Shown: positions 29,437-63,459 of the stretch, one piece after another
How the letters are laid out: every line of letters starts with the position of its first letter
Numbering within the stretch: the first letter of the stretch is position 1
Assembly (NCBI GenBank): GCA_964035575.1
Contig: OZ037836.1
Location: 558,001 to 622,000 of the forward strand
Direction: 5' to 3'
DNA: 64,000 nucleotides
DNA from: Rhynchopus sp. YZ270_cl-10
Taxonomy: Eukaryota
The notes under the pieces: model-generated
Seen by the model: only the letters and a program-made list of their open reading frames with translations
The model's database searches: none
What the model was told of the DNA's origin: nothing
Translations under genes and position numbers: made by a program

Positions 29437-31009
29437 TGTCAGGGTTTCCGCCAGGATTTTGGGTTTCAGGAATTGGGGGGGACCATCAAAAAGACCCCCC
29501 CAAAAAATTTTTTCTCCCCGCAAAAGCGGTCGTCGCGCGCTTCGCGCGCGCCTCCCTGCAGGCCACAGAGTGGAGAGGCGAAGGGTGCACCAGGTTAGAT
29601 AGCAGCCATGTCAAGCTTTACAGCTGTGTTGTCTGGTAGAGGTGGTTCGTTTGGAGGTCGGGGGTGGAAGTTAACAAGGTAAGGGGTCTTGTGAGAGTGG
29701 AGGGTGATGGTGTTTGCTTTTTCTATTGTATGGCGCTACAGTCATTACAGTGCTGCAGTGGGAACATGTAATAACTACCCGTCGCTTGCACCGAAGCCTC
29801 CTTAGAAAAAGGGGCAATGCACGGAAGTATCGATGGAAGTATATCAATATCACATAGCTAGCAACACAGCGCCGCAGGCGCACGGTACGCTACTTTTACC
29901 TTTTTAAAAAAGATTGCACCACCCCCTTTTTTCTTCCACTTCTTCTGGCACAGCGAGCCAAATGCTCTGCACGGTGGGGTCGCATGACCACGGGGGGTCA
30001 TCTACAACCTCCAAAACCCCATTTTTCTTGGGGGGGACCATGGTCCCCCAGTGTTCCTAATTTTGCGTTTAAAACGTTTAAAACGTTTTAAACGTTTTAA
30101 ATTATTTAAAACGCGTTTTAAACGTTTTAAACGTTTAAAACTCGAATAAAAAACGGGTGACAGTTCTGCACAAAAAAACGTAAAAAAAGTGGGGGGAATT
30201 TTTCGAATTTTTTTTTTCTGTATCAAAAATCATAGTTTTGGTGCATCTGGGGTCAATTTAGCCTGGTTTTTCTTGGTTTCTCCTGCTAACTTGTTTCCTG
30301 TACGGTACCCTAATGAGTGCGCTAAAACCTGGCTGATCAAGCGCTTGGTGCCAGCATTTGATGTGTCAAAAATTCCCAGCGGGTTCCAGATGGGTAACAG
30401 GGTACTTAAGGCTGAGTATGACAGGGTCATGGTTCCTGTGAGAGCAGCCCTAGCAAAGAGCCTGCACATCTCGGTATACGTTGATGGCTGGAAGGCGCAC
30501 AACGACGAGAAGGTGTTCACCCTTGTCGCGAGGGTGCGGATGCCCGCCCTGTAAGCACAAAAGTTTTGGAGGAGGACTTGCACAATGCGGAGGAGATCTG
30601 CACGCACCTGCATGAGAAAAAGATAAGTTGAGTGGGCTAGTGTGTGATGGGGACACCATGGGACACCACTGTGTCTTCTCTGTCCACAACAGCAGCGGCG
30701 GACGACCTGGAGAAGTTCATGCGGGTGGAGGACTCCCCTGGTAGAGCTGCTGCGATATCGACTAAGCTACCTGCAGGCGACAGCTGGCTTGCCGGAGCGA
30801 TAGAGACTGTGGAGGAGACGGGAGCCTATCGCCACAGCGTACGCGCACCCTTACTGGACCACGACCCCGTGTCACCGTGGGAGTGGGATCGTACGCTGAA
30901 TGACGTGCTGATCACCAGAAATACCGGGTGTCAGCAAGAGTGACTCTGCAAGCAGCGAAGAGAACCGGCAAAGGACGGAACTGGCTCTTGCGGCTCTGCC
31001 ACCCCACAC

Positions 31010-31215
31010 GGGACGCGTCTACACAGACAGATCCTTGCACACGGTAAACAGAACACTACGCGCTTCACTGACTACCAGATCAGCGCACCCCCAAGGAGGA
31101 GTGGGGGCCATCTTCTACCACAACGACGGCTCCACTACACCAAAGGGGGCACACCAAGCATCCAGTGGCGCAGGCACACTCTGCTCGGCCTATCAGGCAG
31201 AGCTGGTGGCACCTT
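31010..31215 (+). pseudogene. RNase H fragment, probably from a non-LTR retrotransposon
   Basis: RVYTDRS (compare YTDGS), then with a frameshift GGVGAIFY...SGAGTLCSAYQAELVA (RNase HI AEL motif). Confidence 0.6.
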
Positions 31216-31396
31216 GTAATTAGACACCATGCGGTGTCTAATTACACCGTGCCTGCTGCCACTGAAAAGTTCAGCAAAGAGGAAAATACCACATTTTTTC
31301 GCAAAGACATTTTTTTTTGCCTGTAAAAAAAAAAAAAAAAAATTTTTTTTTTTTGCCTGAAAAGCCAAAATTCACCACCGTTTTTTATTCGAGTTT

Positions 31397-32666
31397 AATA
31401 ACTATTTATTCACCTCCTTTTAGCGGGGTTTTATTTTGCGATAACTTCACGCATTTTTTTCCCAGGCGAGGGCTACTTAATTTGCCGAGCGAAGCGAGGC
31501 AAATTGAGTGCACGAGCCTGGGAAAAAAATAAGTGAAGTATCGCAAAATAATCCGCTAAAAGGAGGTGAATACGTAATTTTATTTCACGGGAAATAAAGT
31601 ATACGAAAGGATTTGGCACTTTTAGCGGGACTCATTTATTGTGCAATAACTAACGAGTATGTGTCCCTCCAGGTAGCTCTCATTACCCCCCCGCTAGCTT
31701 TTGCTCGCTGGGAACCTGCAAAAAACTGGTGAACTGGGCCCATACCCTGGTATGTGGGGTGGGATACGCATTTTCGGGGTGGCAGAACCATGTGTGAGCC
31801 ACAGGGTGGTGCACGTGTGACCCCATGCAGTACCACGCAACCCACGTTTTTACACACACAACAACGGCATTTTGCGCGTAGCGCGTACAGTATGTAGCCT
31901 AAAAAGCCCACACCACGTGTACGCATAGCGCGTAGCGTAGCGTGTGGTCGGGTTTGGAAAGCTGCCTCAACGGTACACAAAGCTACATCCCGACCTCTCG
32001 CCACCTCAGTGTCCCCTCGGGTGCGGGAGGTCGGGAAATGGCTGTCGTGCAAGAGCGAGACACATTCAGAAGATCCCCGCCCATCACAGAATATCATGCC
32101 AGCCACCACCTTCCTCACAATGAAGTAAAGGGGGTGGTGTGTCCTTCGTCTTGATAGTGAGATCGTCACGGAGATACACTATGTACGAAACGAAGTCGGC
32201 TTCTGTGGGCTTACCGTCAGTCTTGCCAATGAATTCCTTAAAAAGCGGTCCCATTCACGGACGTACGGTGTCGACAATGCTAGTCCTTACTGTAGTGCTT
32301 GTCCATCTCCTGTCGGAGGACCGTTTGCGTCTTACATCCTTCGGCATGTTGCATGTGTCAGAAAAAATGGGAAAAGGGCAAAAAAAAATTCGAAATTTTC
32401 AATTTTTAGGCGGGTGGTAGTGCAGGATGTACCAAAATTTAGCGTGAAGTTATCGCCAAATAAAACCCCTGTTTTAGCGTGAAAAAAACAAAAATAAAAT
32501 CCCGCTCTGAAGGAATTGCAGTGAAAAAAAGTGAAAAACGCGTGAAATAAAGTTCAATGAGCGGGTTTTTAATTTGCGATAAAAAAAGTGCGTGAAATTA
32601 TCATTAAAAAGAATCCCGCTAAAAGTGCCAAATCCTTCGTATACTTTATTTCCCAGGGGAATAAAA
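31397..32666 (-). mobile_element. Decayed Crypton-like tyrosine-recombinase element
   Basis: Hairpin at about 31400-31579 with a GAA loop at 31491-31493; inverted pair 31578-31630 / 32614-32666. It interrupts the hAT subterminal sequence gagtttaa|aacgttt. Confidence 0.8.
32040..32347 (-). pseudogene. Frameshifted, internally deleted tyrosine recombinase N-terminus
   Basis: Minus-strand frames give YVREWDRF, KPTEADFVSYIVYLRDD and LYFIVRKVVAGMIFCDGRGSSE. These align by eye to YKTEWNKF, QPREEHVVSYLTHLREE and YWCVRKAYVAVCFLSGMRCTE of the 42214..43230 protein. Confidence 0.75.
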
Positions 32667-33517
32667 CGTTTAAAACAGTTTAAAACGTTTAGAATTTAAA
32701 ACGTTTAAAACGTTTAGTTTAAAACTAGCGTTAGGAACACTGTGGTCCCCCCCAAACCCCTGTAAAAATCCGGATTTTTCTGGGAAAAATATTGGGGGGG
32801 TCCATGGTCCCCCCCGGTCCCCCTTGGCGGAAACCCTGAGTGTGTTGTGTTCTTGTTGGGTAGGGGTCTTAATCCCATATTAAAAATGTGAGAAAATGAC
32901 GCACGCCACTTTCTCTCATAGATAGGACTCCCCAGCCTAGGCATACCCAGAAGGCGAATTCGTATTCTGAAATATGGTCCAGGAATTTTGGGATACAAAT
33001 TCAGGGAAAATACAGATTCGTCTTCGAGGTAATGTCTAGGCTAGGGTAGGGGGAGAAAATACAGTTCACACTACAGAAAAAAATGCGGCTGGCATTTTAT
33101 GCTTTAAAAAAAAAAGCAAGAGTACAGCTGCCTGTTGTGCTGATGGGAGGGAATGTGTAATGCAGGGGAAAAAATGAAAAAAAAAAACAAAATCCAAAAA
33201 AAAAGATCGGGTCTTTTGTTTGTGCGGTCAAAGCCGGAAAACAAAAAGGTAAAAAAATTGTGTTAAACTGAAGTACGGTTGTTGTGGTTAATTGAGTACT
33301 CAAAAAGAAACAAGCGAGCTTCTGTCTTTTTCAATCCGTTTTGTTTGCCCTGCAGCGCTGCCTCCAATCTTTTTAGAATTGACAACAAGTTGTTTTATCA
33401 AAAAGAAACCCCCGAGAGTAGCAATAGGTAGAGATGAGTTCCACTTTTTTTCTTTCTTTTTAAAAAAAAACTTGGTTGTTTTAGTGTAGACACCCGAGGA
33501 TGAACTCCACTATACTA

Positions 33518-34242
33518 AAGGGGGAGTGGACCTATTATTAGGGTGGACCTATTATGCTATAATAATAGGTCCACCGTTTTTGGGTTTAAATTTAACTTTT
33601 TAAATCTCGATTTTCGGAGAAATTTTTTTTTAAAAATTGGCTGGGGAATATGGTGGGTGTAGGGGAAGGGTGGCACAGGGTACACGACGGGACTCAGTGA
33701 CAAGTGAAAATGACAAGTGAAAGACAAGTGAAAAAGGTGGCAAGTGGTGGCAAGTAAATCACTTGTCATGAACTACTTACTTGTCATGACAAGTGATTTA
33801 CTTGTCATTCACTTGTCATGTCACACCTTTTTCACTTGTCTTTCACTTGTCATTTTCACTTGTCACTGGGTCCCGTAACGAAGGTTTACTACTTTTTCAG
33901 CGGACACGTTTTGGTGCAGTGGTTTGCAGTTGGCCTGCTGATTTGCAGGCAATACACGGCACGGTCGGCAAGCTTGTGTGTCCGCTTTGCAGGAGGTTTT
34001 GAGGGGGGTGGGCGGAGCAGTGACACCTTCCTCTCAGATGTCGCATCAGGTGGCGCAGCAGATGGCGCAGCTGCATCACCAGGAGAAGGAACTGGTGTTG
34101 AGGGTGCTTTTGATGGCACCTGGTCTTCTCTCTTGATGTGCACACTGCCCATCCTGAACAGACGTAACTGACCTTTGTATGTCGGCTCTTCCTAGCCTAG
34201 ACAAGCAGAATTGTCTAAGGGTTGGATTGTTCACCCACTAAC

Positions 34243-34713: not shown

Positions 34714-37089
34714 TCAGACCTTCCCTTTTTCTCCAAACTCCATCTCATGATTTGACGCAGTACTGCGACCGGACGACATCGCGAATCCGATATTCGAGAG
34801 CGAAACGAACGATGTGGCTGCAGCTGGCTTGTCTGATATACACCAGGAGTGGTACTGCGGGTGCCCTGTGGGCCGTATGGGGACTCCACTGGCAATGAGG
34901 TCCAGCCGCGCCAGCACGACATTCGCAAGCGAAATGGCAACGTCTTGCGCTTCGCGCGACTCCGCAAACTTCCTCATCAACTGCGTGCCGCCCGCTTCGT
35001 CTCCTCTCTCCAAACAGCCCAACGCTTCTGCATAGTCGCTGTAGACGTCCTCCTTGGGGCCTGCCTCGACTTCGTACATCCAACCTGATTTGTTATCTAT
35101 GGGCATCCTAAACGGGGTGTACGCCCGCCCTCCGGTCACCGTCGGAAAGAACGGCGCTAATTCCAATAAAGTCCACGTTGCAGAATGATGATAGGTGCAC
35201 AGTGTATTGCATCCCAGGCCAGAGCAAAGACTAAGCTGATACGCATCGTTCACAGCCGATCCGTACACTGCAAAGGTTTTTGTATGCGAGGTGCCAGCGA
35301 TGCCGTATTGTACCGGGCCGGTTGCAAAGCCGACGGAGAGATCGATGGTGCGTTCGCTCTGTGCCAGGGTTTGCAGCTCGTTTGCAAATATTATGACATG
35401 AGCCGCATGGTGCTTCGCAGGGATCGTTGTGTTGAATGAAACCAGAATGCAGTCCGCGTTTATGGTAAAAACGCATTTTATGGTGTTGCTGACCGTTTCG
35501 ATGCTGGAGGTCATGCGGGTGTGCGCTTCGGACAATTCCTTCGGTGTTAACCCTACGCGGCTTTCTCTCGCAACCAATACCGATGCAGATCGATTTAGCA
35601 TATCCACCCTACTGCGAACCTCAATGGGAGCAGGAGCTGATAAAGGGTGGGACATCGGGTTAGGTGCGGGATGTGTTACGATGCGGGCTTCTTCCATTTT
35701 GTCGTCGTCGACGGAAACGTCTTCAGGATGGTCGATAAACAGGGTATTCGGTATAAAAGTTTTGAACTCGTAGAGGCTTTTCTCCATCATACGAAAGGAA
35801 ACCTCGAGTTGTGCGATTTCTCGAAGAACTGATGGTTTAGTATAGTCTCTGTCTCTCTTGTGTACATCCATTTCTGCGCATTTTTCTAACCTACCTACAA
35901 ATCGTACTAAAGGCTGTGTCAACCAAAACGACAAAAAAATCGTGCAAAAAATCGACACCGCGATTACCGTAACAGACGCGGTGATGCTTGCTTCAAACCC
36001 TCTTTCAACCTCTCCAAAGACGAAATCTCTCGGCATCGCAATGCACGCTGTAAAATGCAATCCATATTCATCGTTGATAAAAAATTTTTCGAACATAAAT
36101 TCTGTTCCCTCCACTGAGAAAGAATTGGACATTGAGGCGCTTTCTAGAGATGGGCAGGACGCACGCACGACCGCATCCTCTGAGTCTTTACACAGCAAAT
36201 TTGGATCGCCACTTGCATAATCTTGCACCGGCGCGCCCACCCCACCATGCGTTGCTCCAACCACAAAACCGTTTTCATCCTGAAGGTAAATTCGTGTATG
36301 GCTCAAGGTGTCACCCCCCATAATGTCCCCTTCGGGTCGAACCTTATGCAATAACGTATTTAATTGAAGCAAATCGACACCCTTATAATCCATTCCCAAA
36401 AACTCTCCATTTTCCCCTCGAATCCATGTTACAAAGACGCGAACGAGAGGTGCAGGCACTGCGACTCCCCAGGTGATGCCACCCCACATCGCCTCTTTTC
36501 CTGGAGCTGGGTCGAATGTCGGGAGGTACTTTTTCTCCCGCCATTCGCCGATGACGTTAAGAGGGAGTGTGAAGAGGTGCTGTTCCGGGAGTAACGCGAG
36601 CGAGGTTTCTGAGATGAGCCATTGCTGGGAGAGGCAGGTGGTGCAGTTTTGGAAGAAGGATTTTTGCTCGCCGTTTGGGGTTCTGAAGACAATGTACCAA
36701 ATGCTTCCAGCATCCGGCAAGAAGGTACCGGCATTGGTAATCTGCGTAAATGAGTTGATCGTTTTCAGATTAAACCATGCAGTCTTATTCAGTGTTATAA
36801 AGTCGTTTAATGTCCCATCCGCCTGCATTGCATGCTGCCTTGCAAGCCCGGCACCAATCTTCGATACCTCCACCACATTATGCAACGACGTCAACACAGC
36901 ATCCTGGACCTGAACCTGCACCTGCCGCATCACCATAGCGCCCAATTGGTCTGCTGAAGTGACGCTATAGGACCATAGCACCCCTCCGGTAGTTACACTC
37001 GCCGCAATCACAAAAAAAACTGCAATAAAAATGGTCAAAAACCTCACAGAAAGAAGCCATGTCCAGCAAGCGGGGGAGGGGAGGGGCAT
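34714..37089 (-). CDS. Receptor-type cyclase-like protein, paralogue of 13187..15541
   Basis: ORF 34714..37128; likely start MPLPSP at 37089. Same TM, sensor, TM, HAMP, degenerate cyclase layout. Confidence 0.8.
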   Translation of the reverse strand: MPLPSPACWTWLLSVRFLTIFIAVFFVIAASVTTGGVLWSYSVTSADQLGAMVMRQVQVQVQDAVLTSLHNVVEVSKIGAGLARQHAMQADGTLNDFITLNKTAWFNLKTINSFTQITNAGTFLPDAGSIWYIVFRTPNGEQKSFFQNCTTCLSQQWLISETSLALLPEQHLFTLPLNVIGEWREKKYLPTFDPAPGKEAMWGGITWGVAVPAPLVRVFVTWIRGENGEFLGMDYKGVDLLQLNTLLHKVRPEGDIMGGDTLSHTRIYLQDENGFVVGATHGGVGAPVQDYASGDPNLLCKDSEDAVVRASCPSLESASMSNSFSVEGTEFMFEKFFINDEYGLHFTACIAMPRDFVFGEVERGFEASITASVTVIAVSIFCTIFLSFWLTQPLVRFVGRLEKCAEMDVHKRDRDYTKPSVLREIAQLEVSFRMMEKSLYEFKTFIPNTLFIDHPEDVSVDDDKMEEARIVTHPAPNPMSHPLSAPAPIEVRSRVDMLNRSASVLVARESRVGLTPKELSEAHTRMTSSIETVSNTIKCVFTINADCILVSFNTTIPAKHHAAHVIIFANELQTLAQSERTIDLSVGFATGPVQYGIAGTSHTKTFAVYGSAVNDAYQLSLCSGLGCNTLCTYHHSATWTLLELAPFFPTVTGGRAYTPFRMPIDNKSGWMYEVEAGPKEDVYSDYAEALGCLERGDEAGGTQLMRKFAESREAQDVAISLANVVLARLDLIASGVPIRPTGHPQYHSWCISDKPAAATSFVSLSNIGFAMSSGRSTASNHEMEFGEKGKV

Positions 37090-37382: not shown

Positions 37383-38164
37383 CAGGCCTTTTGCTAACCA
37401 TCATGCCATCATGCCACGTTTTTGGGCGTTTTTTATTTTTATTTTCCATCATGCCACCATCATGCCACGGGGGGTGGTGGGGCAAGGCTTTCGCTCTGCA
37501 TCACCTGGGGATTTCCCGCCCAGATGGCATGATGGCATGATGGCATGATGGCATGATGGCATGATGGCATGATGGCATGATGGCATGATGGCATGATGGC
37601 ATGATGGCATGATGGCATGATGGCATGATGGCATGATGGCATGATGGCATGATGGCATGATGGCATGATGGCATGATGGCACCTTAAAATTTTTCTGCTC
37701 GCTGCGCTCGCGGAGGTATACCTAAAAAAAAAATTCCCGCTATTTTCTTCCTGCCTACGGTGCCATTTTATAATGTCTAAGGGGATTCCCTTGCATTTTG
37801 CAGCCAGAAATGAAACTTGACCCAAGCTGCAAAAATTTGACCATTGTTATTTCAAAGTGACCCAACCGTTGCAACAGCCCCTGCTTCTGGAAGACGTATT
37901 GATTTTGTACGGTTGGTGTACTTAAGGCGCAAGACCAAGCACCGTTAATAAAGGATTAGATTCCGTTTTTTTTTTTTTTTTGTTATCTCGCAAAGCTGAC
38001 CCTTCGCCTCTCACCCTGGGCTGGCAGGGAGGCGCGCGCGAAGCGCGCGACGACCGCTTTCACCAAGTGGGAAAGCTCGGAATGTACTTTTTTTCCAGGA
38101 AATTATTTTTTTTTTGACCATCATGCCATTCAGGGGGAAAATCCCAAAGTTAGCAAAAGGCCTG
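37383..38164. mobile_element. hAT-type MITE containing a (GATGGCAT)n satellite
   Basis: TIR caggccttttgctaac / gttagcaaaaggcctg; 8-bp TSD gtgggggg; 8-bp array at about 37523-37681. Confidence 0.9.
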
Positions 38165-40414: not shown

Positions 40415-40948
40415 TTAGATGTAGTTCCCCTGCATCCATGCGGTAACGGTTCTCGCAAACCCACGCACGTCTTCTCTCAGCATCTTTGCCGCCTTTTTGT
40501 TGAGCGGGTCGTCTGGGTTGGGCTCGCTGAATAGAAGCTCCATCCCGAAGATCACCGACTTCAGGGTCAACACCGGACGCCACTCAGCACGAAGAATGTT
40601 AAGGCACACCTTACCATCCTCATCGATGTTGGGGTGGTACAAACGGTATGGGTTGTCGTTCAGGCAGTAGGTCACCTTGGGAGGCTGATGCGGGTAGTCG
40701 AACGGTACGGTCACACGGAACTTAAACGTGCCGCCAGAGTAGTAGCCTTCGCTCGGGCGGAGCGTTAACAGCAAGACGCGCGGGTTCTCCGGGTCGACCT
40801 GCTCAAACGAGGTGCGGCTCCCGGTCAGGTCGATCTCAGCAATGTCCATCGTCAGGCGAATGTCAGCAGAGGCCTTCCCTCCGCTCTTCTTGTCCTCCTT
40901 CTCCTTCTGGAGGGTTGCCATACGCTTCTCAAGACCTTTGCGCAGCAT
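40415..40948 (-). CDS. UBC12: NEDD8-conjugating E2 enzyme (Ubc12/UBE2M)
   Basis: Lysine-rich N-terminal extension, DIRLTMDIAE, YHPNIDEDGKVCLNILRAEWRPVL and EPNPDDPLN. Start MLRKG at 40948; the upstream ORF extension runs into transposon DNA. Confidence 0.85.
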   Translation of the reverse strand: MLRKGLEKRMATLQKEKEDKKSGGKASADIRLTMDIAEIDLTGSRTSFEQVDPENPRVLLLTLRPSEGYYSGGTFKFRVTVPFDYPHQPPKVTYCLNDNPYRLYHPNIDEDGKVCLNILRAEWRPVLTLKSVIFGMELLFSEPNPDDPLNKKAAKMLREDVRGFARTVTAWMQGNYI

Positions 40949-41759
40949 TGTGGTGGGTGTTTTGCCTAAGGGGGGTGTGGGTGTGGGTGTGGGTGTGGGT
41001 GCACAACGGGACCCAGTGACAAGCGACAAGTGAAAATGACAAGTGAAATGGGTGACAAGTAAATGACAAGTGAATGACAAGTGGATCACTTGTCATGACA
41101 AAAAAGTCATTTGTCATGACAAGTGACTTTTTTGTCATTTTACTTGTCATAAATATGGGTAGATGCCAAAAACCCCCCCTCCCCCTAATTTCACTACGAT
41201 TTTTTGAGGTTGTACCAGGTTTTACCAGAAATAAGCGCCGAAAACTGCCCAGAACCACCCCAAAACCATTTTCCGGCGGGTTTTGGGGGCTATTGGGGAA
41301 AAATACACTTTTTTGGGGGTATTTTTTTGTGTTTTTAGGCTATTTTTTACTCCCCATGCCTTACAACCCCAGAACAGATAGACACATAAAGAATGCCCAG
41401 GGTTGGACTCAACACTTACCTTGAAGGTATAGATAAATGCGTCCGTGGGGACTGGTCATGTCGGGGGATCGGAAAAGACGCCCTTCACCGCATGGCTAAG
41501 AGAAAGCGGGATTTTGTTACTTCAGTTTGTTCAGTTTCACAAAGAACGTGTACGAACTGTGGCAATACAGGCCACAATACACATACATGTCCAAAAAAGC
41601 GTCGCATATCATAAAAAAGACCCCAAAACACCCCCCAGACCCCAAAACGTCCCCCAGACCCCCCAAACCCCCCTTGTACATGTGCCTGGGCCTCTCATAG
41701 CCTCCCAACCAGACTTTCCGCGCTGAAGAATCCGATGAAGAATTCTTCGAAAAAAAAAA

Positions 41760-43418
41760 ATAACTAATTATTAGCGTGAAATAAAGTGCACTTTTTTTCA
41801 CGCCCACGTAATTTTGGCTCACGAGTGAGAGTTTATTGCCCGAGCCGCAGGCGAGGGCAATAATAGAGCACGAGTGAGACAAAATACGTGGAAGTGAAAA
41901 AACGCACTTTATTTCAAACTAATACGTAGTTTTGTTTTACAAGTGAAAATGATATTTTTGCTGGGATCCTTCACAAACGAGACGTAAAATAGAGTGATTT
42001 TATGAACAAAATGTGGGTACCTGTAAGTGAGAGTGTGAATGAGAGTAGGGGAACATGTGAACATCAATCAAAAGCAGGGAAGGGGTTACTTTTTTTGATA
42101 TATGCCTCCTATGACTGGTACTAATTACAAGATGTCACCACTCATCTCGCCTGTAGGGGGGGGGCAGGTGTATAGAGCATCACAGAAGGGGGGTTTTTTT
42201 TTTGCACTCATGATCATGGTTTGTTCTGTTGCACATTGATGTTAATCTTGACTTCTTGTGGCGTCTGAGTTGGGGGACTGTTGTTCTGTGTCAACAGCTG
42301 TGACATCGCAACTTGACCGGCCTGTGTGACTTCGGTGTACCTTTGTGGCATTGCCTGACTGACCCACCCATAGTGGCGTTGCATCTGTACAATAGATGCT
42401 CCTGCCTCAGCGGCTTGAGTCGCAGAAGACCTGCGGAAGCTGTGCCCAGTGTACGAACCGTCCAGCGCAAGCACCCTCGCGACTTCTGCAGGTATGCCGT
42501 ACATTTTGTTGATGCCAAGAGGTTGCACACGAAAGGTCCCAGTAGTAGTTCTGTCAGCTGTCGTCTTAGTTCCAGTGATGAAGAAGCGACCCTCCTGTGA
42601 AACTGGTGAGCGCCGGTTCAGGTACTCCTCCACCACACAAAAGTAGATGCTGTCTCTTGGTACCACAAACCTCCCACGCTCCATGTCGGCCTTTTTCACC
42701 TTAGCACAGTGCTGGTACGTGAAGAGGTATCCCACTGGTGATTCCTGATAATTTGTCATCTCAAGCATCAGTGCTTCTGTGCATCTCATTCCCGACAGAA
42801 AACACACCGCGACGTAAGCCTTGCGGACACACCAGTAGCAGTCGCTCAACTCGCTCATCTTGAGAAACATCTCCACTTCTCCCTTCGAAAACGTCTTGCT
42901 CTTCTTCGTCGATTCGTCACTTCCCCAGGTCTTCAGCAACAGCCCGATGCGGTGGTACTCCTTTAGTGAAAAGTCGAACTCCGTCTTGAACATAAAGTTG
43001 AGCTTAGAGTAGCACGACCATAATGAGCTGGCTTTGTAGCTGCGTTCTTCGCGCAGGTGTGTCAAGTAAGAGACCACATGTTCTTCTCTTGGCTGCTTCC
43101 GCCCCGTGATTTTATTGTGTTGTAAAAACTTATTCCACTCCGTTTTGTATGCAGTGCTTGACTTCAACCCTGCCAGAAGCTCGGTCTCATACAGATCCTC
43201 CATAGCCTCCTTCTTCTTGGTCCTTGGCATGATTTGTAGGGTGGAGTGTGTGGTTTTGTGACTGACAGAAAACAGTGAAACTTTTTTTCACGCCAGTGAA
43301 ACTTTTTTTCACGCCTCCAGCGAAATTACTAAGAGCAAGCGTGAAAAAAAGCTCACTTTATTTCACGCCCCGTTTGTGAAGGATCCCAGCAAAAAGTCAT
43401 TTTCACATGTGATATAAA
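41760..43418 (-). mobile_element. Apparently intact Crypton-like tyrosine-recombinase transposon
   Basis: Hairpin 41762-41931 with a GCA loop at 41847-41849; inverted pair about 41931-41997 / 43353-43418; single recombinase ORF; no reverse transcriptase. Confidence 0.85.
42214..43230 (-). CDS. Tyrosine recombinase (phage-integrase family, Crypton-like)
   Basis: 338 aa. N-terminal core-binding region, then SGMRCTE (Arg I), AKVKK (probable Lys), YTGHSFRRSSAT (HxxR), RHYGW and PQRY (Tyr). The catalytic set appears complete. Confidence 0.92.
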   Translation of the reverse strand: MPRTKKKEAMEDLYETELLAGLKSSTAYKTEWNKFLQHNKITGRKQPREEHVVSYLTHLREERSYKASSLWSCYSKLNFMFKTEFDFSLKEYHRIGLLLKTWGSDESTKKSKTFSKGEVEMFLKMSELSDCYWCVRKAYVAVCFLSGMRCTEALMLEMTNYQESPVGYLFTYQHCAKVKKADMERGRFVVPRDSIYFCVVEEYLNRRSPVSQEGRFFITGTKTTADRTTTGTFRVQPLGINKMYGIPAEVARVLALDGSYTGHSFRRSSATQAAEAGASIVQMQRHYGWVSQAMPQRYTEVTQAGQVAMSQLLTQNNSPPTQTPQEVKININVQQNKP

Positions 43419-45770: not shown

Positions 45771-48700
45771 TCAGTGCATTTTTATGGCGACAGGTTCGAA
45801 GTACTTCTTCTCCCACGCGTGGCGAAAGCGTTCGTACACAGGCCCATCACCCTGTGCAAGGATTTGGTCTGCTTCGTCGGTGGAGTCCTTCTCCTGTGGT
45901 AGGCATAGGTCGTAGGTGGTAAATCTTAACATCATAACGTACACTCTCTGTTGATTCTAAAACGGGGGTGGGAAAAATCGCGGAAGGTAAATTGGGGAAG
46001 AGGTTCAAAAGTTGGAACGCTTCCTCACCCCATATCACACAAAAAAAGAACACCCCCAGATCACACACTAAATAGTGGAGCACACGGGTGGCTACACTAA
46101 TACAACCAAATTTTCAAATAAAACAAATACACACCTCAAACTGGCCGCTGATGATGAGAGCAGCCCAGTTGTTCCACTTCATGTGCGGGTCCCTCTTCTC
46201 TGCCTCCTCTAGCTGGTACATCCATTCGCCAGCGTGGGCTGGGTCCAGCGCGGACACAAGCTCGTACAGGGAGAGCTTACGGGGAAGCTTGCGGAAGGTC
46301 GCCCCCTCGACAAGGCGGAATAGAAAACACGCCACCACCTCGGACCGTACTGTCTGGTCCGTAAGCACACCAAACTCACGCTCCCTGCAGTACCTCTCCA
46401 GCGCATATGCCCACGAGATTGTAGGTGACAGGAACGAAAACCTGCGCATCACAGACGTGCCCATGTTCCCGACACGTCCCTCCCCAGTCACAACTGACGC
46501 CGTGGTGTCCAGGTTAAACTGCTGTGCAGCACGTCTGCAAAGATGTGCCGCACCGCACGCATAGACTCGGTGACTCACAACATAAGTCGCAGCGTTGAAC
46601 GAACACGCGAACCTGTCACCCATAAACGGCTCCGTCACACCTTTCTGCTTCGAGAACACAGCAACGAAGGCCTCCAGCAGGATTGAGTGCAGCTCCAACA
46701 CCTCTGTATCGGGCTTGTCCTCGCAGTGTCTGTGGAAGTCCTTGATGTTCACGACTGTATAGGAGAAGCGTTTGTGGTTGAGGACACAGACGAAGGGGTT
46801 CACAGCAGTGCGGTCCGCACGCCAGGCAGACTCGTTGAGGCGTGTGCTGGTGGTGGAGCTTGTACGCTGGAAGGAGTTCGTGAAGGAGTGGCCCAACTCA
46901 GCAGCATGTAGAGTAGCGTCAGGGTCACTGCTGCAGTCACGTATCAGCTGCACAGACTGCGGCATGTAGCTCTTGTACAGCTTCAGGTTCACAAGCATGT
47001 GCCCAATAGCACGGTTCATCATGCGCAGCTCACTGATGACCGACGTCTCGTCAGGAACGGTGCTGATCTTCAGCACCGCTGCCTTGGCCATAAGCACCGC
47101 AGTGTCCTCAAACGGACGTGTCAGCACGTTGTTGAAGAGCATGAACACCACAACAGACGCCATCACCAGCGCCACCATCACAAGGATCGTTCTGTTCGCC
47201 TTCTGCCGCAGTGCCTTGTTCGTGTTCTTCTCAAGAACGTCCAGATCCTGCAGTGTCCGCATGTTCGTCGCGTCAATCTTCCGCAGAATGTCCTCACGTG
47301 GGATCATCGTCGCAACGGTAAAGGGCTCCATCTCTCGTGTGTCGGAGTTTGTGTCAAACGTCCGTGTCTGCACAAGGAAGGACTTGCTCACGGGGTTGCG
47401 TCTCACTTCGTCAGAAGCATGCAGGAAGTGTGGCGTGTCTGGGAAGTACCTCCGCACAAAGGTCAGGCTGTCGATGCGACCCTTGAAGAACTGTCCCACG
47501 TAGTACGGGTTCGAATGCTTGCGTGTCCTACTTCCCAACACTCCCCTACCACGTGAGTCAGTACCGTGAGCATGAAGTGTGCCGTTCACGTACAAGCTGC
47601 AACGTCCACCACCCATCACAGCTGTCACCGTTGTCCACGCACCCACAGGGAAGCCACGTCTCCCAAAGGCATCCACGTAAGGTGCTGTGCTGCACCCGTA
47701 CTGCAGAACAAACAGATAGATCTGCCCGTTCCCAAACAGACGGAAGTTCGTCTCCCCCACAAGCGAGTCTGTGAACAGACGAGGTGTGGTTGCACTTGGT
47801 GATGCTTCGTCGTACAGCACATCAGGCCTGATGCGCATGCTCACCATGAACTCCGTGTAGCGTGTGAAGTCTGGGAGCAGCATGCACTTCAGCGCGGCTG
47901 TGCTGCTTATGCGCGAGGCAACACAACGACGTCCGTCTGCATGCACAAGCTCCGCATCGAACCCGTCGTACTTGCTCTTCCACGGCTCCCCTGCTGCACT
48001 CGCACGTGACCGCTCCACAACTGGTGCCTGCCGTGTCAGGTTCCTGTACACGTACTGCACTGTCGACCCGTCAAACTCAAGCACGTCCTTCCCACGCTGT
48101 GTGTCGTGCACAACACAGTTCCCACACCCACCGTCACGCACCTCCGTTTCCCAGTGGTGCATGCTCGTGTCCACAGCAGCACCGTTCTCCACACTGAACA
48201 TTGCGAGTGTTGTGTGCGGCGACTCTATCCAGTAATCAGCCTGGTCAAACTCCCCGTAGTGCTGCACCCATCTGTCCTCTGCTGGCGTTGCTGCTGCACC
48301 CGCGTCCAGGTAGTGGCCCACTGCGTTCACATCGACGGCGGGCACGTCGCAGAAGTGGTGCAGCGCATACACGTCGTGAAGGTATGGACTGAACATGACT
48401 GCCACATACTCCTGCGACTCTGTGCCTGTGTTGTATCCCCCCAGAATCACTTTGTCGTGTCTGTCCACCACAAGCACAGTCATGTTCGCCAGGCTTGAGC
48501 CCTGAAGACGTGCCGTGTCCAAGGCTCTGTCCACAAAGTACTGGAGGCGCTCCTGCACAGCAATCGTCCCGTGGTACGGCATTGTGCTGCCCTCCATGTT
48601 CGACCCGGTCAGTGCCATGTAGGCAACGATGGGAACCTGATCGTACCACGTCCGTGAGTAGAACTGCACGCGTCCGGTGCGCCAGATGATTTTCTTCTTT

Positions 48701-50850
48701 GCATACTGTGTGCCTCGTGTGACTGCGAGAGGATCGCCACCCAGGTTGCCAGCGTACTCGGTGCTAACGTTGAGCTCCTCACGTGAGTGTGCAGCGACGA
48801 AATCTGGGCCAGGTTCTATTTCCGACCCCGCCAGTTTCCCGTAGCTCAGTACGCCGTAACGCCAACCGTCCTGTGTCTCACCGACACTCCCAACCACGCC
48901 GTCTCCTCGTTCCACGTCAGGTCTGTTGTCGGTCTTAAAGCACCGCGCAGGTGAGCACCCCATGTAGAAGCCACGTGTGGTGAACACACGCACAAAAAGG
49001 TGAAAGTATGTCATAAAAGAATTCATGTACATCTCTTGAAACCGTGGTTCGAACTGTGCCCAGCTCCCGTCGTAGTGAACACCCACAAAGCCGTTGTGTG
49101 TGATCATCATTCTGTCCTCCACTGCATTGAAGCCCACAGTCAGGCCGTCAAAGATCTTGTCCATCACAATTGTGCGTGTGATGTTCGACAGCTCAATCGT
49201 GTTCTGCTTCTCGGCAGCAAGAGAACTGTCGAGTGCCTTCCGTCCGTTCGCCGTTGCTGTGTCTGTTGAGTCCTGCCCTGCAACGTAGACAAGAGAGAAG
49301 GATACGCCAGACGTGATCACCACCACCGACACACTCACAGCCATGCTTGCCACCTTCAGCGGGATCGCAAACCCAGACACAGCCATCTCCTCAGGCACCT
49401 CCACTGCATCACGGCGCTGTTTCATCACGACCCCCAACATCACCAAGGTGGGAACCAAGATAAGAGCGAGAGATGTCGCGTCGGTCAGGTCTAGTTCTGC
49501 AGACGTGTCCTCCTCCTCAGCAGCAACGACTACCTGTGGTGGTAAAGACGTCACGGGCACGGTGTCCGACCAGTTCCCGTCAGTGAACGTGAGTGCATCA
49601 AGTGAGTAGCCAACACCAGGAATGTGCCTTCCACCACCCCGTGCTATCCACGCCATGAACTGTGCCGTCACCTTGCGTCCCACTGTGTGCACAGGGATCC
49701 CGACACGCATTGAGTATGCCTTCACCTTGTAGTACTCTCGCGAACCGTATGTTGTGCGTGTCATGTACACAAAGGCTGTGACACCACTTTCATTAGCGTA
49801 CCGTGCCTGGCGCACAAGTGGACAGGAACTTTGGTACGAGGCAAAGACCATCTTCCCCTTGAGTGACGCAAAGTCCGAAGCAGCACAGCCCCCACGTGGC
49901 AGCTCTGTCGTGTACACTGCTTCGTCCTTCTGTGTCTCAAACGGAAGTGTCCGCACAAGCTGCAGAAGGGTCTCCCTCTTGCGTGGACGCAGGTCGTTCC
50001 CCATAACACACACGTGCTCTGCCTCACCAGGGATCCACATCGCAAGTGGACACTTCTCGCAGATGCGGTCCTGCTGTGCGTTGTCCACCACTTTGCATGT
50101 GTCTGCACGGTCCACTTTGTTGTTGAAGCAGCCGTCCCACGGGTAGTCCTCAAGGTTGTCCAGGGCAGTCGGCGGCAGCTCAGAGCACTCAAACTTGATG
50201 TGGCCACGGACCCTTGCCCCGCTGTTCACAGCAGCAACTATGTAGTCGGCTTCGTGTCTGTCGGCGAAGAGCGTGGGCATGATGTTCCCTTCACGCAGCA
50301 GCACACCGGACATGGAAATGCGCTGTTCGAACATGAACCAGTCGTACACAATACCCACAGCAGCACCAGTCTGCTCCACAAAATCCTGCTTCGTAACGTA
50401 CGTGCAGGTGCCCCTGTACACAAGCACAATCTTCCCGTCGTACACCTTCCCGTCACCCAAGGAGTAGTCACTTGCCTTGCACCCACGGGTACTTTTACTC
50501 GCAATACTCTCGTTCCCGACCACAACAATGTCCATCTCCTTGTTGTTCAGTGGGTGGTATGCATCAATGTGCCCGTCGGGTGCCCACGGCTCGAACTTGT
50601 TGTCCGTGAGACACAGCCACATCCCTGCCACCTCGGGCGGCTCTGTCACGACAAGCCGCACGGGACACTGGTAGTAGCAGTAGTCGTACAGCCGCCACGT
50701 GGTCCGGTTGCACATGATGTCCTTACGCCAGCCGTCGTAGATGTACGCACTCGGCATCTCAGGGATGAACTTCCGGAGGCAGTCTGCACGGCGCACCGGA
50801 CACTGCGGCTCTGCACCCCACGCAAGCAGCACCAGCACCGCTGCCAACAT
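45771..50850 (-). CDS. Large receptor: signal peptide, 2 PA domains, TMs, extracellular region with LamG/ConA, TM, HAMP, degenerate cyclase; probable exons 46135..50850 and 45771..45893
   Basis: PA: GKIVLVYRGTCTYVTK. LamG: WTTVTAVM..SLYVNG..FKGRIDSL. Cyclase-like: VVNIKDFH, FMGDRF, VTGEGRVGNMGT. A GT..AG phase-0 intron at 45894-46134 is inferred. Confidence 0.75.
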
Positions 50851-55607: not shown

Positions 55608-58600
55608 TCAGCAAAGACTGGAGTAACTGTGTGCACTCCTGTTGCACAAACGACGCAGCACTTCATGTGAAACTAGCGCAATAGGCTGGCTACATACCTC
55701 GAACTTGCCCTTGAAAATGAGGGTCGTGACGTTGTTCCACAGTGTCGTAGGGTCCTTGCTGGCAGCCTCCTCCAGCTGGTACATCCACTCGTCCAACTTC
55801 GACACGTCGCGAAACTGCAGCAGTTCAAACAAACACATCGGCTTCGGAAGCTTCTTAAACGTGACCCCATCAACAATGCGCAACACAAACGACGTCTCCA
55901 CCTCTGCATACACGAACTGGTCCGTAAGCACACCAAACTCACGCTCCCTGCAGTACCGCTCCAGCGCATATGCCCACGAGATTGTAGGTGACAGGAACGA
56001 AAACCTGCGCATCACAGACGTGCCCATGTTCCCGACACGTCCCTCCCCAGTCACAACTGACGCTGTTATTTCCACACATATTTTCCTCGCTGCAACACGA
56101 CACAACTGCGCAGTACTGCACGCATGCACTCGATGGTTGCCCACGTGTGTCGCAGCGTTGAACGAACACGCGAACCTGTCACCTGTGAAAGGCTCCGTCA
56201 CACCCTTCTGCTTCGAGAACACAGCAACGAAGGCCTCCAGCAAGTTCGAGTGCAGCTCCAGCACCTGTGTGTCGGGCTTGTCCTCGCAGTGTCTGTGGAA
56301 GTCCTTGATGTTCACGACTGTGTAGGAGAAGCGTTTGTGCACCACTGCACACAGGAACGGATGCACAGGATCCTTCTCTTTGCGCTGTTGGGATGACCCC
56401 CCGCACTTACGTGACAGAGAGGAGGCTTTCGAGCGGTGTGAACTGGATGAGTCGCTCATCTTGCTCTTGGTAATGTCATCGTCATCCTCACTAGTCAGTT
56501 CACCAAGCTGCACAGACTGCGGCATAAAGCTCTTGTACAGCTTCAGGTTCACAAGCATGTGCCCAATAGCACGGTTCATCGTGCGCAGCTCACTGATGAC
56601 GGACGTCTCGTCAGGAACGGTGCTGATCTTCAGCACCGCTGCCTTGGCCATAAGCACCGCAGTGTCCTCAAACGGACGTGTCAGCACGTTGTTGAAGAGC
56701 ATGAACACCACAACAGACGCCATCACCAGCGCCACCATCACAAGGATCGTTCTGTTCGCCTTCTGCCGCAGTGCCTTGTTCGTGTTCTTCTCAAGAACGT
56801 CCAGATCCTGCAGTGTCCGCATGTTCGTCGCGTCAATCTTCCGCAGAATGTCCTCACGTGGGATCATCGTCGCAACGGTAAAGGGCTCCATCTCTCGTGT
56901 GTCGGAGTTTGTGTCAAACGTCCGTGTCTGCACAAGGAAGGACTTGCTCACGGGGTTGCGTCTCACTTCGTCAGAAGCATGCAGGAAGTGTGGCGTGTCT
57001 GGGAAGTACCTCCGCACAAAGGTCAGGCTGTCGATGCGACCCTTGAAGAACTGTCCCACGTAGTACGGGTTCGAATGCTTGCGTGTCCTACTTCCCAACA
57101 CTCCCCTACCACGTGAGTCAGTACCGTGAGCATGAAGTGTGCCGTTCACGTACAAGCTGCAACGTCCACCGCCCATCACAGCTGTCACCGTTGTCCACGC
57201 ACCCACAGGGAAGCCACGTCTCCCAAAGGCATCCACGTAAGGTGCTGTGCTGCACCCGTACTGCAGAACAAACAGATAGATCTGCCCGTTCCCAAACAGA
57301 CGGAAGTTCGTCTCCCCCACAAGCGAGTCTGTGAACAGACGAGGTGTGGTTGCACTTGGTGATGCTTCGTCGTACAGCACATCAGGCCTGATGCGCATGC
57401 TCACCATGAACTCCGTGTAGCGTGTGAAGTCTGGATGCAACATGCACTTCAGCGCGGAGACTGTGCTGGTTGAGTTCACAACAGGCGAGGCAACACAACG
57501 ACGTCCGTCTGCATGCACAAGCTCTGCATCTAACTCATAGTACTTGCTCTTCCACGGATTCCCTGCTGCACTCGCACGTGACCGCTCCACAACTGGTGCC
57601 TGCCGTGTCAGGTTCCTGTACACGTACTGCACCGTCGACCCGTCAAACTCAAGCACGTCCTTCCCACGCTGTGTGTCGTGCACAACACAGTTCCCACACC
57701 CACCGTCACGCACCTCCGTTTCCCAGTGGTGCATGCTCGTGTCCACAGCAGCACCGTTCTTCACACTGAACTGTGCGGCGGTTGTATACGGCGACTCTGT
57801 CCAGTGCGCAGCCTGGTCGAACTCCCCGTAGTGCTGCACCCATCTGTCCTCTGCTGGTGTTGCTGCTGCACCCGCGTCCAGGTAGCGTGCAAGGCCACTC
57901 ACATGCATCGCAGGCGACTCGTCTACGGCAACAAGCGCGTATACAGCCTGCAACTGTGGCACCCACTGCATTGCCACAATTTCTCTGTCTTTTTCTGTCC
58001 CCGTGTTGAAGCCACCCAGAATCGCCCTGTCGTGTCTGTCCACCACAAGCACAGTCATGTTTGTCAGGCTTGAGCCCCCAAGCCGTGCTGTGTCAATGGC
58101 CGAGCGAATGAAGTCCTCAAGACTCTCCTGCACAGCAATCGTCCCGTGGTACGGCATTGTGCTGCCCTCCATGTTCGACCCGGTCAGTGCCATGTAGGCA
58201 ACAATCGGTGGTGAGAATCGCCAGAGCACGGAGTAGAACTGCACACGTCCTGTCTTCCAGATCACTTTCTTGATCCCGAACTGTGTGCCTCGTGTGACTG
58301 CGAGAGGATCGCCATTAATGTTGCCGATGTACTCAGTGCTTGCGTTGATGAGGGACACCGGGTGTATGTATTTGTGCGTTGTACTGGGCTCTGATTGGGA
58401 ACCTGCAACATTGACGTATCCCAGCAGACCATACAGCCAACCAGCCTGTGTCTGCTCAACAGTCCCAACCACACCGTCTGCTCGTTCCACGTCAGGTCTG
58501 TTGTCCGTCTTCAAACATTGTTCTTCACGGCACCCCATGTAGAAGCCACGTGTGGTGAACACACGCACAAAAAGGCGAAAGTTTGTCATAAACGAGTTTG

Positions 58601-60437
58601 TGAACATCTCAAAGAACTGTGCCTCGAACTGTGCCCAGCTCCCGTCGTAGTGAACACCCACAAAGCCGTTGTGTGTGATCATGACTCTGTCCTCCACTGC
58701 ATTGAAGCCCACAGTAAGGCCGTCGAAGATCTTGTCCATCACAATTGTGCGTGTGATGTTCGACAGCTCAATAGTGTTCTCCATCTCACTCATAACCAGT
58801 TTGCCTGCAACCTTCCGCCCGTTCGCCGTTGCTGTGTCTGTTGAGTCCTGCCCTGCAACGTAGACAAGAGAGAACGTCACAAGCGACGTGATCAGCAGCA
58901 GCGACACACTCACAGCCATGCTTGCCACCTTCAGCGGGATCGCAAACCCAGACACAGCCATCTCCTCAGGCATCTCCACTGCATCACGGCGCTGCTTCAC
59001 CACGATCCCCAACATCACCACTGCAGTCATCACAACCACCACAAGACACACAACCGTCACAGTGTCGGTCAGGTCCAGATCGTCAGACGTGTCCTCCTCC
59101 TCAGCAACAGCCGCTACCTGCAGTGGTGGCGCCGTCATGGGCACAGTGTCCGACCAGTTCCCGTCAGTGAACGTGAGTGCATCAAGTGAGTAGCCAACAC
59201 CAGGAATGTGCCTTCCACCACCCCGTGCTATCCACGCCATGAACTGTGCCGTCACCTTGCGTCCCACTGTGTGCACAGGGATCCCGACACGCATTGAGAA
59301 TGCCCTCACCTTGTAGTACTCTCTCGAGCCGTAATTCGTACGTGTCATTGAAACAAAGGCTGTGACACCACTTTGTTCAGCGTTCCGCACCTGGTGGACA
59401 GGCGGACAGGCACTTTGGTACGACGCAAAGACCATCTTCCCCTTGAGTGACGCAAAGTCCGAAGCAGCACAGCCCCCACGTGGCAGCTCTGTCGTGTACA
59501 CTGCTTCGTCCTTCTGTGTCTCAAACGGAAGTGTCCGCACAAGCTGCAGAAGGGTCTCCCTCTTGCGTGGACGCAGGTCGTTCCCCATGACACACACGTG
59601 CTCTGCCTCACCAGGGATCCACATCGCAAGTGGACACTTCTCGCAGATGCGGTCCTGCAGTGGGTCGTCTAAGGATTGGCACGTGCCTGCAAAGTCCAGT
59701 TTGTTGTTGAAGCAGCCGTCCCACGGGTAGTCCTCAAGGTTGTCCAGGGCAGTCGGCGGCAGCTCAGAGCACTCAAACTTGATGTGGCCACGGACCCTTG
59801 CCCCGCTGTTCACAGCTGCTGCAATGTAGTCGGTTTCGTGTCTGTCTGCGTGCAGGAATGGGAAGTTCGTTGCTGTCGTGGCAGACGGGCCACCCATAAT
59901 TGAACGTTGTTCACCGGTGCTGTAGTCGTGCAGAATACCTACAGCAGCACCAGACTGCTGCGCCAGATACTGCTTCACAACGTACTTGCATATACCCCTG
60001 TACACAAGCACAATCTTCCCGTCGTACACCTTCCCGTCACCCAAGGAGTAGTCACTTGCCCTGCACCCAAGGTTGCTTTTTGACTTGATGCTGTTGTTCC
60101 CCACCACAACAATGTCCATCTCCTTGTTGTTCAGTGGGTGGTATGCATCAATGTGCCCGTCGGGTGCCCACGGCTCGAACTTGTTGTCCGTGAGACACAG
60201 CCACATCCCCGCCACCTCGGGCGGCTCTGTCACGACAAGCCGCACGGGACACTGGTAGTAGCAGTAGTCGTACAGCCGCCACGTGGTCTGGTTGCATATG
60301 ATGTCCTTGCGCCAGCCGTCGTACCTGTACGTACCCGCCATCTCGGGGATGAACTGCCGTAGACAGTCTTGTCTCCATACTGGACACTGAGGCTCTGCAC
60401 CCCACGCAAGCAGCACCAGCACCGCAGCAACCGACAT
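55608..60437 (-). CDS. Paralogous large PA/LamG/HAMP/degenerate-cyclase receptor; probable 59-nt intron at 55639-55697, so the true 3' end is uncertain
   Basis: Start MSVAAVLVLL at 60437; long stretches are identical to the 46135..50850 gene. Inferred splice GAG|GTATGT...CAACAG|GAGTGC. Confidence 0.78.
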   Translation of the reverse strand: MSVAAVLVLLAWGAEPQCPVWRQDCLRQFIPEMAGTYRYDGWRKDIICNQTTWRLYDYCYYQCPVRLVVTEPPEVAGMWLCLTDNKFEPWAPDGHIDAYHPLNNKEMDIVVVGNNSIKSKSNLGCRASDYSLGDGKVYDGKIVLVYRGICKYVVKQYLAQQSGAAVGILHDYSTGEQRSIMGGPSATTATNFPFLHADRHETDYIAAAVNSGARVRGHIKFECSELPPTALDNLEDYPWDGCFNNKLDFAGTCQSLDDPLQDRICEKCPLAMWIPGEAEHVCVMGNDLRPRKRETLLQLVRTLPFETQKDEAVYTTELPRGGCAASDFASLKGKMVFASYQSACPPVHQVRNAEQSGVTAFVSMTRTNYGSREYYKVRAFSMRVGIPVHTVGRKVTAQFMAWIARGGGRHIPGVGYSLDALTFTDGNWSDTVPMTAPPLQVAAVAEEEDTSDDLDLTDTVTVVCLVVVVMTAVVMLGIVVKQRRDAVEMPEEMAVSGFAIPLKVASMAVSVSLLLITSLVTFSLVYVAGQDSTDTATANGRKVAGKLVMSEMENTIELSNITRTIVMDKIFDGLTVGFNAVEDRVMITHNGFVGVHYDGSWAQFEAQFFEMFTNSFMTNFRLFVRVFTTRGFYMGCREEQCLKTDNRPDVERADGVVGTVEQTQAGWLYGLLGYVNVAGSQSEPSTTHKYIHPVSLINASTEYIGNINGDPLAVTRGTQFGIKKVIWKTGRVQFYSVLWRFSPPIVAYMALTGSNMEGSTMPYHGTIAVQESLEDFIRSAIDTARLGGSSLTNMTVLVVDRHDRAILGGFNTGTEKDREIVAMQWVPQLQAVYALVAVDESPAMHVSGLARYLDAGAAATPAEDRWVQHYGEFDQAAHWTESPYTTAAQFSVKNGAAVDTSMHHWETEVRDGGCGNCVVHDTQRGKDVLEFDGSTVQYVYRNLTRQAPVVERSRASAAGNPWKSKYYELDAELVHADGRRCVASPVVNSTSTVSALKCMLHPDFTRYTEFMVSMRIRPDVLYDEASPSATTPRLFTDSLVGETNFRLFGNGQIYLFVLQYGCSTAPYVDAFGRRGFPVGAWTTVTAVMGGGRCSLYVNGTLHAHGTDSRGRGVLGSRTRKHSNPYYVGQFFKGRIDSLTFVRRYFPDTPHFLHASDEVRRNPVSKSFLVQTRTFDTNSDTREMEPFTVATMIPREDILRKIDATNMRTLQDLDVLEKNTNKALRQKANRTILVMVALVMASVVVFMLFNNVLTRPFEDTAVLMAKAAVLKISTVPDETSVISELRTMNRAIGHMLVNLKLYKSFMPQSVQLGELTSEDDDDITKSKMSDSSSSHRSKASSLSRKCGGSSQQRKEKDPVHPFLCAVVHKRFSYTVVNIKDFHRHCEDKPDTQVLELHSNLLEAFVAVFSKQKGVTEPFTGDRFACSFNAATHVGNHRVHACSTAQLCRVAARKICVEITASVVTGEGRVGNMGTSVMRRFSFLSPTISWAYALERYCREREFGVLTDQFVYAEVETSFVLRIVDGVTFKKLPKPMCLFELLQFRDVSKLDEWMYQLEEAASKDPTTLWNNVTTLIFKGKFEVCSQPIALVSHEVLRRLCNRSAHSYSSLC

Positions 60438-62920: not shown

Positions 62921-62952
<32 letters not shown>

Positions 62953-63459
62953 GTCCATCCCCGAGATCGCCCCTGCGTCCTTCGTCGCCTGACGCTGCGA
63001 GTCGTTGAAGTACGCAGGCACAGTCACAACGCTCTTCTTCACCTCCTTCCCAAGGAACTGCTCCGCCGTCTCCTTCATCTTCACAAGGATCATCGCAGAG
63101 ATCTCCTCAGGCCTGAACGTCTTCGTCGTCCCCATGAACGACACCTCAATCAGCGGCTTCCCGTCCTCCTTCGCCACAACCTTGAACGGCCAGTGCTTCA
63201 TGTCGCTCTGCACAGACGAGTCCTCCAGCTTGCGCCCGATCAGACGCTTCGCGTCGAACACCGTGTTCGTCGGGTTCATCGCCACCTGGTTCTTCGCCGC
63301 ATCTCCGATCAGACGCTCGCTGTCTGCGAACGCCACGTACGACGGGGTCGTCCTGTTCCCCTGGTTATTCGCAATGATCTCCACACGCTCGTTCTGCCAC
63401 ACTCCCACACACGAGTAGGTCGTTCCCAAGTCAATACCGATGGCTCCGTCGTAGGACAT
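61615..63459 (-). CDS. HSP70: Cytosolic-type HSP70 lacking the C-terminal EEVD
   Basis: [30 protein letters not shown] and [14 protein letters not shown] signatures; ends KMYDQAA*. Confidence 0.95.

Follow-up and report, generated by a model that had tools for sequence, protein, structure and literature searches.

Two imperfect hairpins in the genome of a eukaryote, probably a protist, share a GNA triloop and tandem GA/GA mismatches, and they raise the question of whether such a fold is kept as single-stranded DNA and tells a recombinase which strand to use. The window analysed here is a stretch of 64,000 nucleotides from Rhynchopus sp. YZ270_cl-10 (contig OZ037836.1), and all coordinates refer to it. 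A sequence-only reading had proposed that selection acts on the plus-strand fold as DNA and that its non-canonical pairs may determine the recombined strand, in the manner of the extrahelical bases of attC.

Element 1 and its recombinase

The hairpin forms one end of a Crypton-like transposon of the DNA type, which has a Cre-like tyrosine recombinase (YR). The first such transposon, element 1, consists of the following parts.

41760..43415, no strand assigned: element 1, an autonomous YR DNA transposon of ~1656 bp in an A-run, ends +/-1 nt
41760..41933, + strand: terminal fold-back; its 5′ arm begins with the element end, and a T-run, facing the first four bases, ends the 3′ arm
41789..41790, + strand: 2-nt bulge of the 5′ arm at 29 nt from the end; its exact register in the run is ambiguous
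41823..41873, + strand: second tandem GA/GA, 41823-24 facing 41872-73 (arm-to-arm alignment)
41833..41863, + strand: tip, with a 9-bp stem, GA/GA (41842-43 and 41853-54), a 3-bp stem and a GCA triloop
41921..41997, + strand: internal splint, ICR-like; complement of the left end, then directly complement of the right end
42214..43230, − strand: tyrosine recombinase, 338 aa, with R149, K177, H263, R266, W289 and Y298 present
43286..43368, no strand assigned: four copies of the GCGTGAAA repeat, lying upstream of the YR gene
43353..43415, + strand: far end, complementary to the splint, with AAA next in the flank

Contigs from public runs X1 and X3 span 41753/4-43418, and X2 covers the element in two pieces; these contigs begin and end in A-runs at 41753/4 and 43418. 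Empty-site joints were observed at 41759->43416 (X2) and 41760->43416 (X3), in one contig each, and the register of the element junctions is uncertain by 1-2 nt. Neither the empty-site joints nor related insertions revealed 4-6-bp terminal repeats at the ends of either window element; a 1-nt duplication is possible. The empty sites of elements 1 and 2 may represent pre-insertion or paralogous alleles and are not proof of excision. A joint between far end and hairpin end was not seen for either element in the public-run contigs, whose assembly drops rare forms. The same contigs contain no variant of the element 1 hairpin at >=5%, so the hairpin gives no within-family covariation signal.

The sole long ORF of element 1 is the YR, which matches PF00589 (E 3e-9). 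It lies far closer to Cre than to IntI, both by sequence (E 1e-10 versus 4e-4) and by fold, its model (pLDDT 89) having Cre/Tre as best Foldseek match (TM ~0.71, versus 0.54 for IntI), which speaks against an IntI-type integrase. An identical copy of the protein is encoded on 37 contigs, among which there may be repeated assemblies. A word search with the single element 1 protein returned only the self-match, and a profile search returned 1770 relatives at E<=0.001; two named insect relatives were found. Viral contigs contained no relative, whether queried by single protein or by alignment. The GCGTGAAA repeats are possible duplex binding sites, and 11 of the 14 window matches to GCGTGAAR fall in elements 1 and 2 (5.3 expected).

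Element 2, an internally deleted relative

The second hairpin belongs to a shorter element with the same arrangement.

31398..32662, no strand assigned: element 2, an internally deleted relative of ~1265-1266 bp, with a YR remnant and an empty-site joint
31398..31581, + strand: terminal fold-back, with a 3-nt bulge of the 5′ arm near 31427-31429
31569..31637, + strand: internal splint; 31578-31637 is an inverted match to 32666-32607 (90% over 61 nt)
32100..32350 (approximate), − strand: broken remnant resembling a YR N-terminal domain (six-frame translation compared by eye with the family alignment)
32607..32662, + strand: far end, with AAAA next in the flank

The empty-site joint of element 2 runs 31395->32662, skips 1266 and possibly lies <=3 nt further on; it is supported by two contigs of run X8 and by one of X3 that has 8 letters between. 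The splint match required a gapped search, and tblastn with the element 1 protein as query gave no match in the remnant region. Minor variants in public runs have the tip shortened or replaced (31458-31515).

The host site of element 2 is a subterminal repeat of a TIR element. This element (30028-32755) has TTTAAAACG-type subterminal arrays, the right one of which contains element 2, and a decayed transposase-like stretch that appears hAT-like by eye.

Hairpin tips and tandem mismatches

Motif search placed exact matches to the tips at 41838-41858 in element 1 and at 31484-31500 in element 2 (0/100 shuffles matched in each case). Arm-to-arm alignment resolved two tandem GA/GA mismatches per hairpin on the + strand of both elements, those of element 2 lying at 31487-88/31496-97 and 31468-69/31514-15 around a GAA triloop. 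The tips, triloops and mismatches are thus as first described from the sequence, and the hairpins are present but larger than the 41790..41900 then given, extending over 41760-41933 and 31398-31581. Folded as DNA, positions 41785-41915 reach a z-score against shuffles of -9.3 on the + strand and -8.4 on the - strand; the element 1 hairpin therefore folds on both strands.

GA/GA mini-hairpins are enriched in the window, with 9 occurrences against 0-2 in five shuffles and 0-3 for five other dinucleotides. Seven of the nine are located outside elements 1 and 2, in other repeats, which rules out GA/GA as a YR-specific signature.

An internal splint complementary to both ends

Read along the strand that starts with the hairpin end, the order of parts is left end, hairpin, left-end complement ending in a T-run, right-end complement, gene, right end and flanking A's. 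The two complements join as one continuous splint, whose far-end portion in element 1 (41931-41997) is an inverted match to 43418-43353 (85% over 67 nt). Because the 3′ arm of the hairpin runs on into the far-end complement, one folded strand would rebuild the joined ends, like the ICR of DIRS elements. When the ends were joined in silico, fold prediction gave a single long stem, interrupted at the junction by a small mismatched loop. The sequence-only reading correctly described strand-specific mismatches; it overlooked this internal far-end copy as well as the A-run as target.

Strand asymmetry among related loci

A metagenome scan provided 60 related loci whose YRs are 24-53% identical. Hairpins were scored without regard to strand at a cut-off of 56 (in the null, n=230, the 95th percentile was 53 and the highest score 58.5), and 31 hairpins in 28 of the 60 loci passed it; many remaining contigs are too short for an end. 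Orientation was assigned solely from the side of the gene. Removal of six near-copies and both window elements left 25 non-redundant hairpins. This count retains the hairpins of L014, L017, L021 and L053, together with the second hairpin in each of L030 and L046, all of which are probably unrelated AT-rich or assembly palindromes and add zeros.

The 25 hairpins contain 47 2x2 loops. Read from the hairpin end, 17 are GA/GA and none is TC/TC or AG/AG; counted per hairpin, GA is favoured in 12, TC in 0 and neither in 13. Without the hairpin cut-off, GA/GA tips occur in 13 of all 60 loci and TC/TC in 1 (p 0.002), the tip of this lone locus lying outside its element. Among 26 hairpins examined, 15 have a GA tip, none a TC tip and 11 no GA tip. 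Most tips are GNA triloops, and loops of 4 nt occur in L015, L049 and L030. For sheared GA pairs, the preferred neighbours are a preceding pyrimidine and a following purine; at the GA tips, C precedes in 27/30 cases and G follows in 27/30. Single mismatches are scarcely biased (A.G 15 versus C.T 14; G.T 39 versus A.C 23, p 0.056).

The 9-bp stem below the tip could be compared in 14 of the 15 hairpins with a GA tip. All 126 of 126 cells are paired, a figure inflated by the choice of rows for a GA tip with stem, and 7 of the 9 pairs vary on both sides. The covariation that had been suggested as a check on the original claim is therefore present. Since the mismatches are conserved and strand-specific across families unrelated in sequence, their positions are not random among family members. 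The mismatched hairpin design is thus real, conserved and strand-specific. One subfamily (L033/L055) lacks GA/GA, and L054, a sister element of L055, has its hairpin tip flipped (loop TGC versus GCA), so inversion of the tip does occur.

The hairpin lies upstream of the gene for 8 of the 15 GA tips and downstream for 7. On a tree of 20 YRs (L049 excluded), gene orientation switches 6 times, of which at least 3 are forced, no fewer than in shuffles. The favoured strand thus tracks the hairpin end, and the gene is ruled out as its setter.

Further features of the layout recur. Arms measure ~70-79 nt, a length fixed in most families, and the distance between tip and terminus is 63-89 nt. A terminus could be placed by motif or eye in 19 hairpins; with the two window elements and a near-copy set aside, 16 are left, and in 16/16 of them the bulged bases favour the 5′ arm. 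In each window element the bulge lies at 29 nt from the end. The end-first strand is predicted to be more stable in 17/18 hairpins, by 3.8 kcal/mol on average and 1.0 in element 1, and for the modelled junction of element 1 the complement folds better (-99.9 versus -97.3).

The splint also recurs. Of 24 hairpins, 12 from nine families have a splint that matches the far end at p<=0.02, with A's directly after each matched far end, and four further hairpins have a weak match at the homologous place. Some of the splint matches at 15-16/20 are barely at, or not above, the level of control windows. A match is absent in 7 of the 24, six of which have only 179-384 nt on the far side and one of which (L031) has 1080. 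One family is represented by five insertions, which differ in their flanks. L033 provides a natural head-to-tail junction of far end and hairpin end (L033:1-60, 1541-1595), which may belong to a tandem or to a circle and, compared with the splint, has 1-2 additional bases.

The hairpin tip and the choice of strand

A Cre-sized footprint covers ~13 bp per half-site, and a tip 63-89 nt from the end lies outside it. Given this distance, the subfamily without GA/GA and the seven mini-hairpins in other repeats, it is doubtful that the GA pairs choose the strand. The idea that GA/GA and the GNA loop act like the extrahelical bases of attC was not supported: by position they correspond to the terminal structure of attC, which plays no part in selecting the strand (PMC2727003, in part). 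The 5′-arm bulges, extrahelical bases on one arm as in attC, and the mismatched junction are by analogy better counterparts and likelier strand marks than the tip; the bulge at 41789-41790 is the candidate strand determinant of element 1. The tip is read as a folding aid.

Relation to known systems

The elements display the attributes of a Crypton, namely a YR with intact catalytic residues, mobility in the form of several copies and empty sites, and neither RT nor DDE transposase, the YR being the only long ORF of element 1 and RT domains occurring in 0/41 scanned relatives. Helitrons and Helentrons are defined by an HUH Rep-helicase, and the presence of a YR alone rules them out. CryptonA is ruled out as well, as DUF3504 matched 0/32 members at E<=0.05 and PF00589 matched 32/32, and so are CryptonF and CryptonS, since there are no 5-6-bp terminal direct repeats and no further domain.

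The elements work like a Crypton, and their size and gene content agree with CryptonI as described, which makes them candidate members. CryptonI elements, at 1528-1980 bp against ~1.5-2.3 kb here, likewise have the YR as sole gene, no C-terminal domain, non-autonomous derivatives and insect relatives (PMC3212892, in part); what sets the window elements apart is a terminal fold-back with a splint. Animal Cryptons have been reported, in the part of the literature available, without terminal repeats. Here, too, an end-to-end TIR or direct repeat is absent, yet an internal complement of both ends is present, which an end-to-end comparison could miss. We found no description of a hairpin or ICR in Cryptons in the literature searched; Repbase entries and subscription reviews may mention such structures. 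The accessible Crypton literature likewise yielded no demonstration of the route of movement.

A DIRS1-like retrotransposon is ruled out by the lack of RT/RNaseH, Gag ORFs and ITRs, while an ICR complementary to both termini is present. DIRS-1 shares with our elements the internal tandem complement of both termini, integration by a YR and a single-stranded intermediate; it differs in having RT, Gag and ITRs, and the splint here is imperfect and at the same time forms the 3′ arm of the hairpin at the terminus. For DIRS elements, the modelled substrate of integration is a double-stranded circle (PMC7192593, in part). With attC/IntI the elements share an imperfect palindrome, low sequence conservation, one-arm bulges, a mismatched spacer and a YR. 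They differ in using one splint for two ends, their own Cre-like YR and an A-run target instead of attI, and in carrying GA/GA in the terminal part, which does not select the strand in attC (PMC2727003, in part). CTXphi attP(+)/XerC resembles them in a site predicted on one folded strand only, one exchange and little homology, but relies on host XerCD, a dif site and rolling-circle ssDNA, whereas the elements here have no Rep gene (PMC3442271, in part). Vibrio SE elements also circularise one specific strand by YR, with four genes and two YRs against one YR plus fold-back here (PMC9345347, in part). Lastly, the tip of element 2 contains GCGAAGC, an instance of the mini-hairpin GCGNAGC, and GNA loops dominate the family; GCGNAGC is a generic motif and not a transposon signature (PMC13037366, in part).

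Proposed movement as a folded single strand

We propose, with a probability of about 0.6, that the elements transpose through a folded single-stranded circle, by analogy with attC and CTXphi attP(+), in which one folded strand is recombined (PMC2727003, PMC3442271, each in part). The proposal builds on the observed ends, intact YR, fold-back, splint, far-end A-run and family-wide strand asymmetry; the recurrence of this one-strand design in many distant relatives suggests that a folded-strand route, of a kind familiar from bacteria, is likely. Once single, probably at a host replication fork, the end-first strand would pair both element ends side by side on the internal splint, forming a duplex-like site. 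The GNA/GA-GA tip would nucleate and stabilise the fold, and the 5′-arm bulges and mismatched junction may mark the strand for the YR. Together with the unbroken strand of the target, the folded ends would have the geometry of a Holliday junction, so that a single strand exchange by the YR would join both ends and free a single-stranded circle. The circle would then insert into an A-run, where target A's would pair with the splint T-run, and replication would resolve the junction. Speaking against the single-strand model are the small stability gap and its reversal at the modelled junction of element 1, the scarcely biased single mismatches, the weak splint matches, the 13/25 hairpins without stem GA/GA, 11/26 without a GA tip and 7/24 without a splint match, a YR nearer Cre than IntI, and the same tip seven times in other repeats.

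Alternatively, the fold could serve replication or end repair: the splint would template end-joining, the mini-hairpin would prime synthesis or exclude SSB, and the YR would integrate a double-stranded circle. The model and essential role of the DIRS ICR (PMC7192593, in part), the occurrence of GNA mini-hairpins at phage ssDNA priming sites with poor SSB binding (PMC13037366, in part) and the distance of the tip from the junction favour this reading. We consider it unlikely, as the conserved 5′-arm bulges, the arms of ~70-79 nt and the imperfect splint look more like features of a protein substrate with a defined shape than of an exact repair template, and the far-end A's match the splint T-run.

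Somewhat less probable still is classical duplex excision of a Crypton, with the palindrome acting as a cruciform or as accessory YR sites and GA/GA merely aiding extrusion. Circular excision is the standard Crypton model (PMC3212892, in part), and the Cre-like enzyme, the repeated GCGTGAAR motifs near the ends and the folding of both strands agree with it. However, it leaves the one-arm bulges, the one-strand GA/GA and the splint adjoining the hairpin unexplained, and the 4-6-bp terminal direct repeats are absent.

Tandem GA pairs are stable in RNA too, and selection could act on a transcript from the hairpin end, possibly reverse-transcribed in trans; the few tips with 4-nt loops point the same way. 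This is very improbable, since families differ in whether the marked strand is sense or antisense, RT domains are lacking in the 41 relatives scanned, and most tips are GNA triloops, whose RNA mini-hairpin melts far below its DNA counterpart (PMC13037366, in part). The triloop tips point to DNA over RNA and support the original suggestion that the fold is selected as DNA. Neutral decay of a palindrome without function, which similar mini-hairpins elsewhere in the window might suggest, is largely refuted by the 17-to-0 bias, the compensatory changes and a layout common to YRs ~30% identical.

Because the fold-back and splint fix the ends exactly, set a rule for the target and name a substrate, the mode of movement can be tested with no more than one 338-aa protein and some oligonucleotides. 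Should the model be true, a eukaryotic recombinase reads DNA shape on one strand, Cryptons are linked to DIRS retrotransposons, and a compact single-strand integrase is on offer. We see an even chance that the elements represent a widespread eukaryotic class of one-gene transposons whose folded single-stranded circle enters A-runs through one YR strand exchange, a counterpart of attC and CTXphi, with the DIRS ICR being the same folded site. DIRS elements would then be such transposons that acquired a reverse transcriptase.

Other features of the window

Both element ends (41760-41763, 31398-31401) begin ATAAC-TA, and CryptonF terminal repeats include ATAACT and TAACTA (PMC3212892, in part); this is possibly a Crypton-wide end motif, or chance. 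Arrays of ~44-nt units at 9360-9890 and 23610-23680 carry seven exact copies of the GA/GA mini-hairpin, its loop being GAA or GCA, and are repeats with no YR nearby. They seem to be a different element type that shares the ssDNA motif. Perfect GC hairpins similar to these mini-hairpins occur at 23820-23850, 29520-29560 and 38019-38060, and inverted, MITE-like arrays of TGACAAGTG-type units at 33687-33876 and 41030-41150. Host genes recognised by eye lie at 13187-15541, 34714-37089, 46114-50850, 55608-60587, 40415-40948 and 61615-63459; by kind they include receptor-cyclase-like paralogues, a ubiquitin-conjugating enzyme, HSP70 and LRR proteins.
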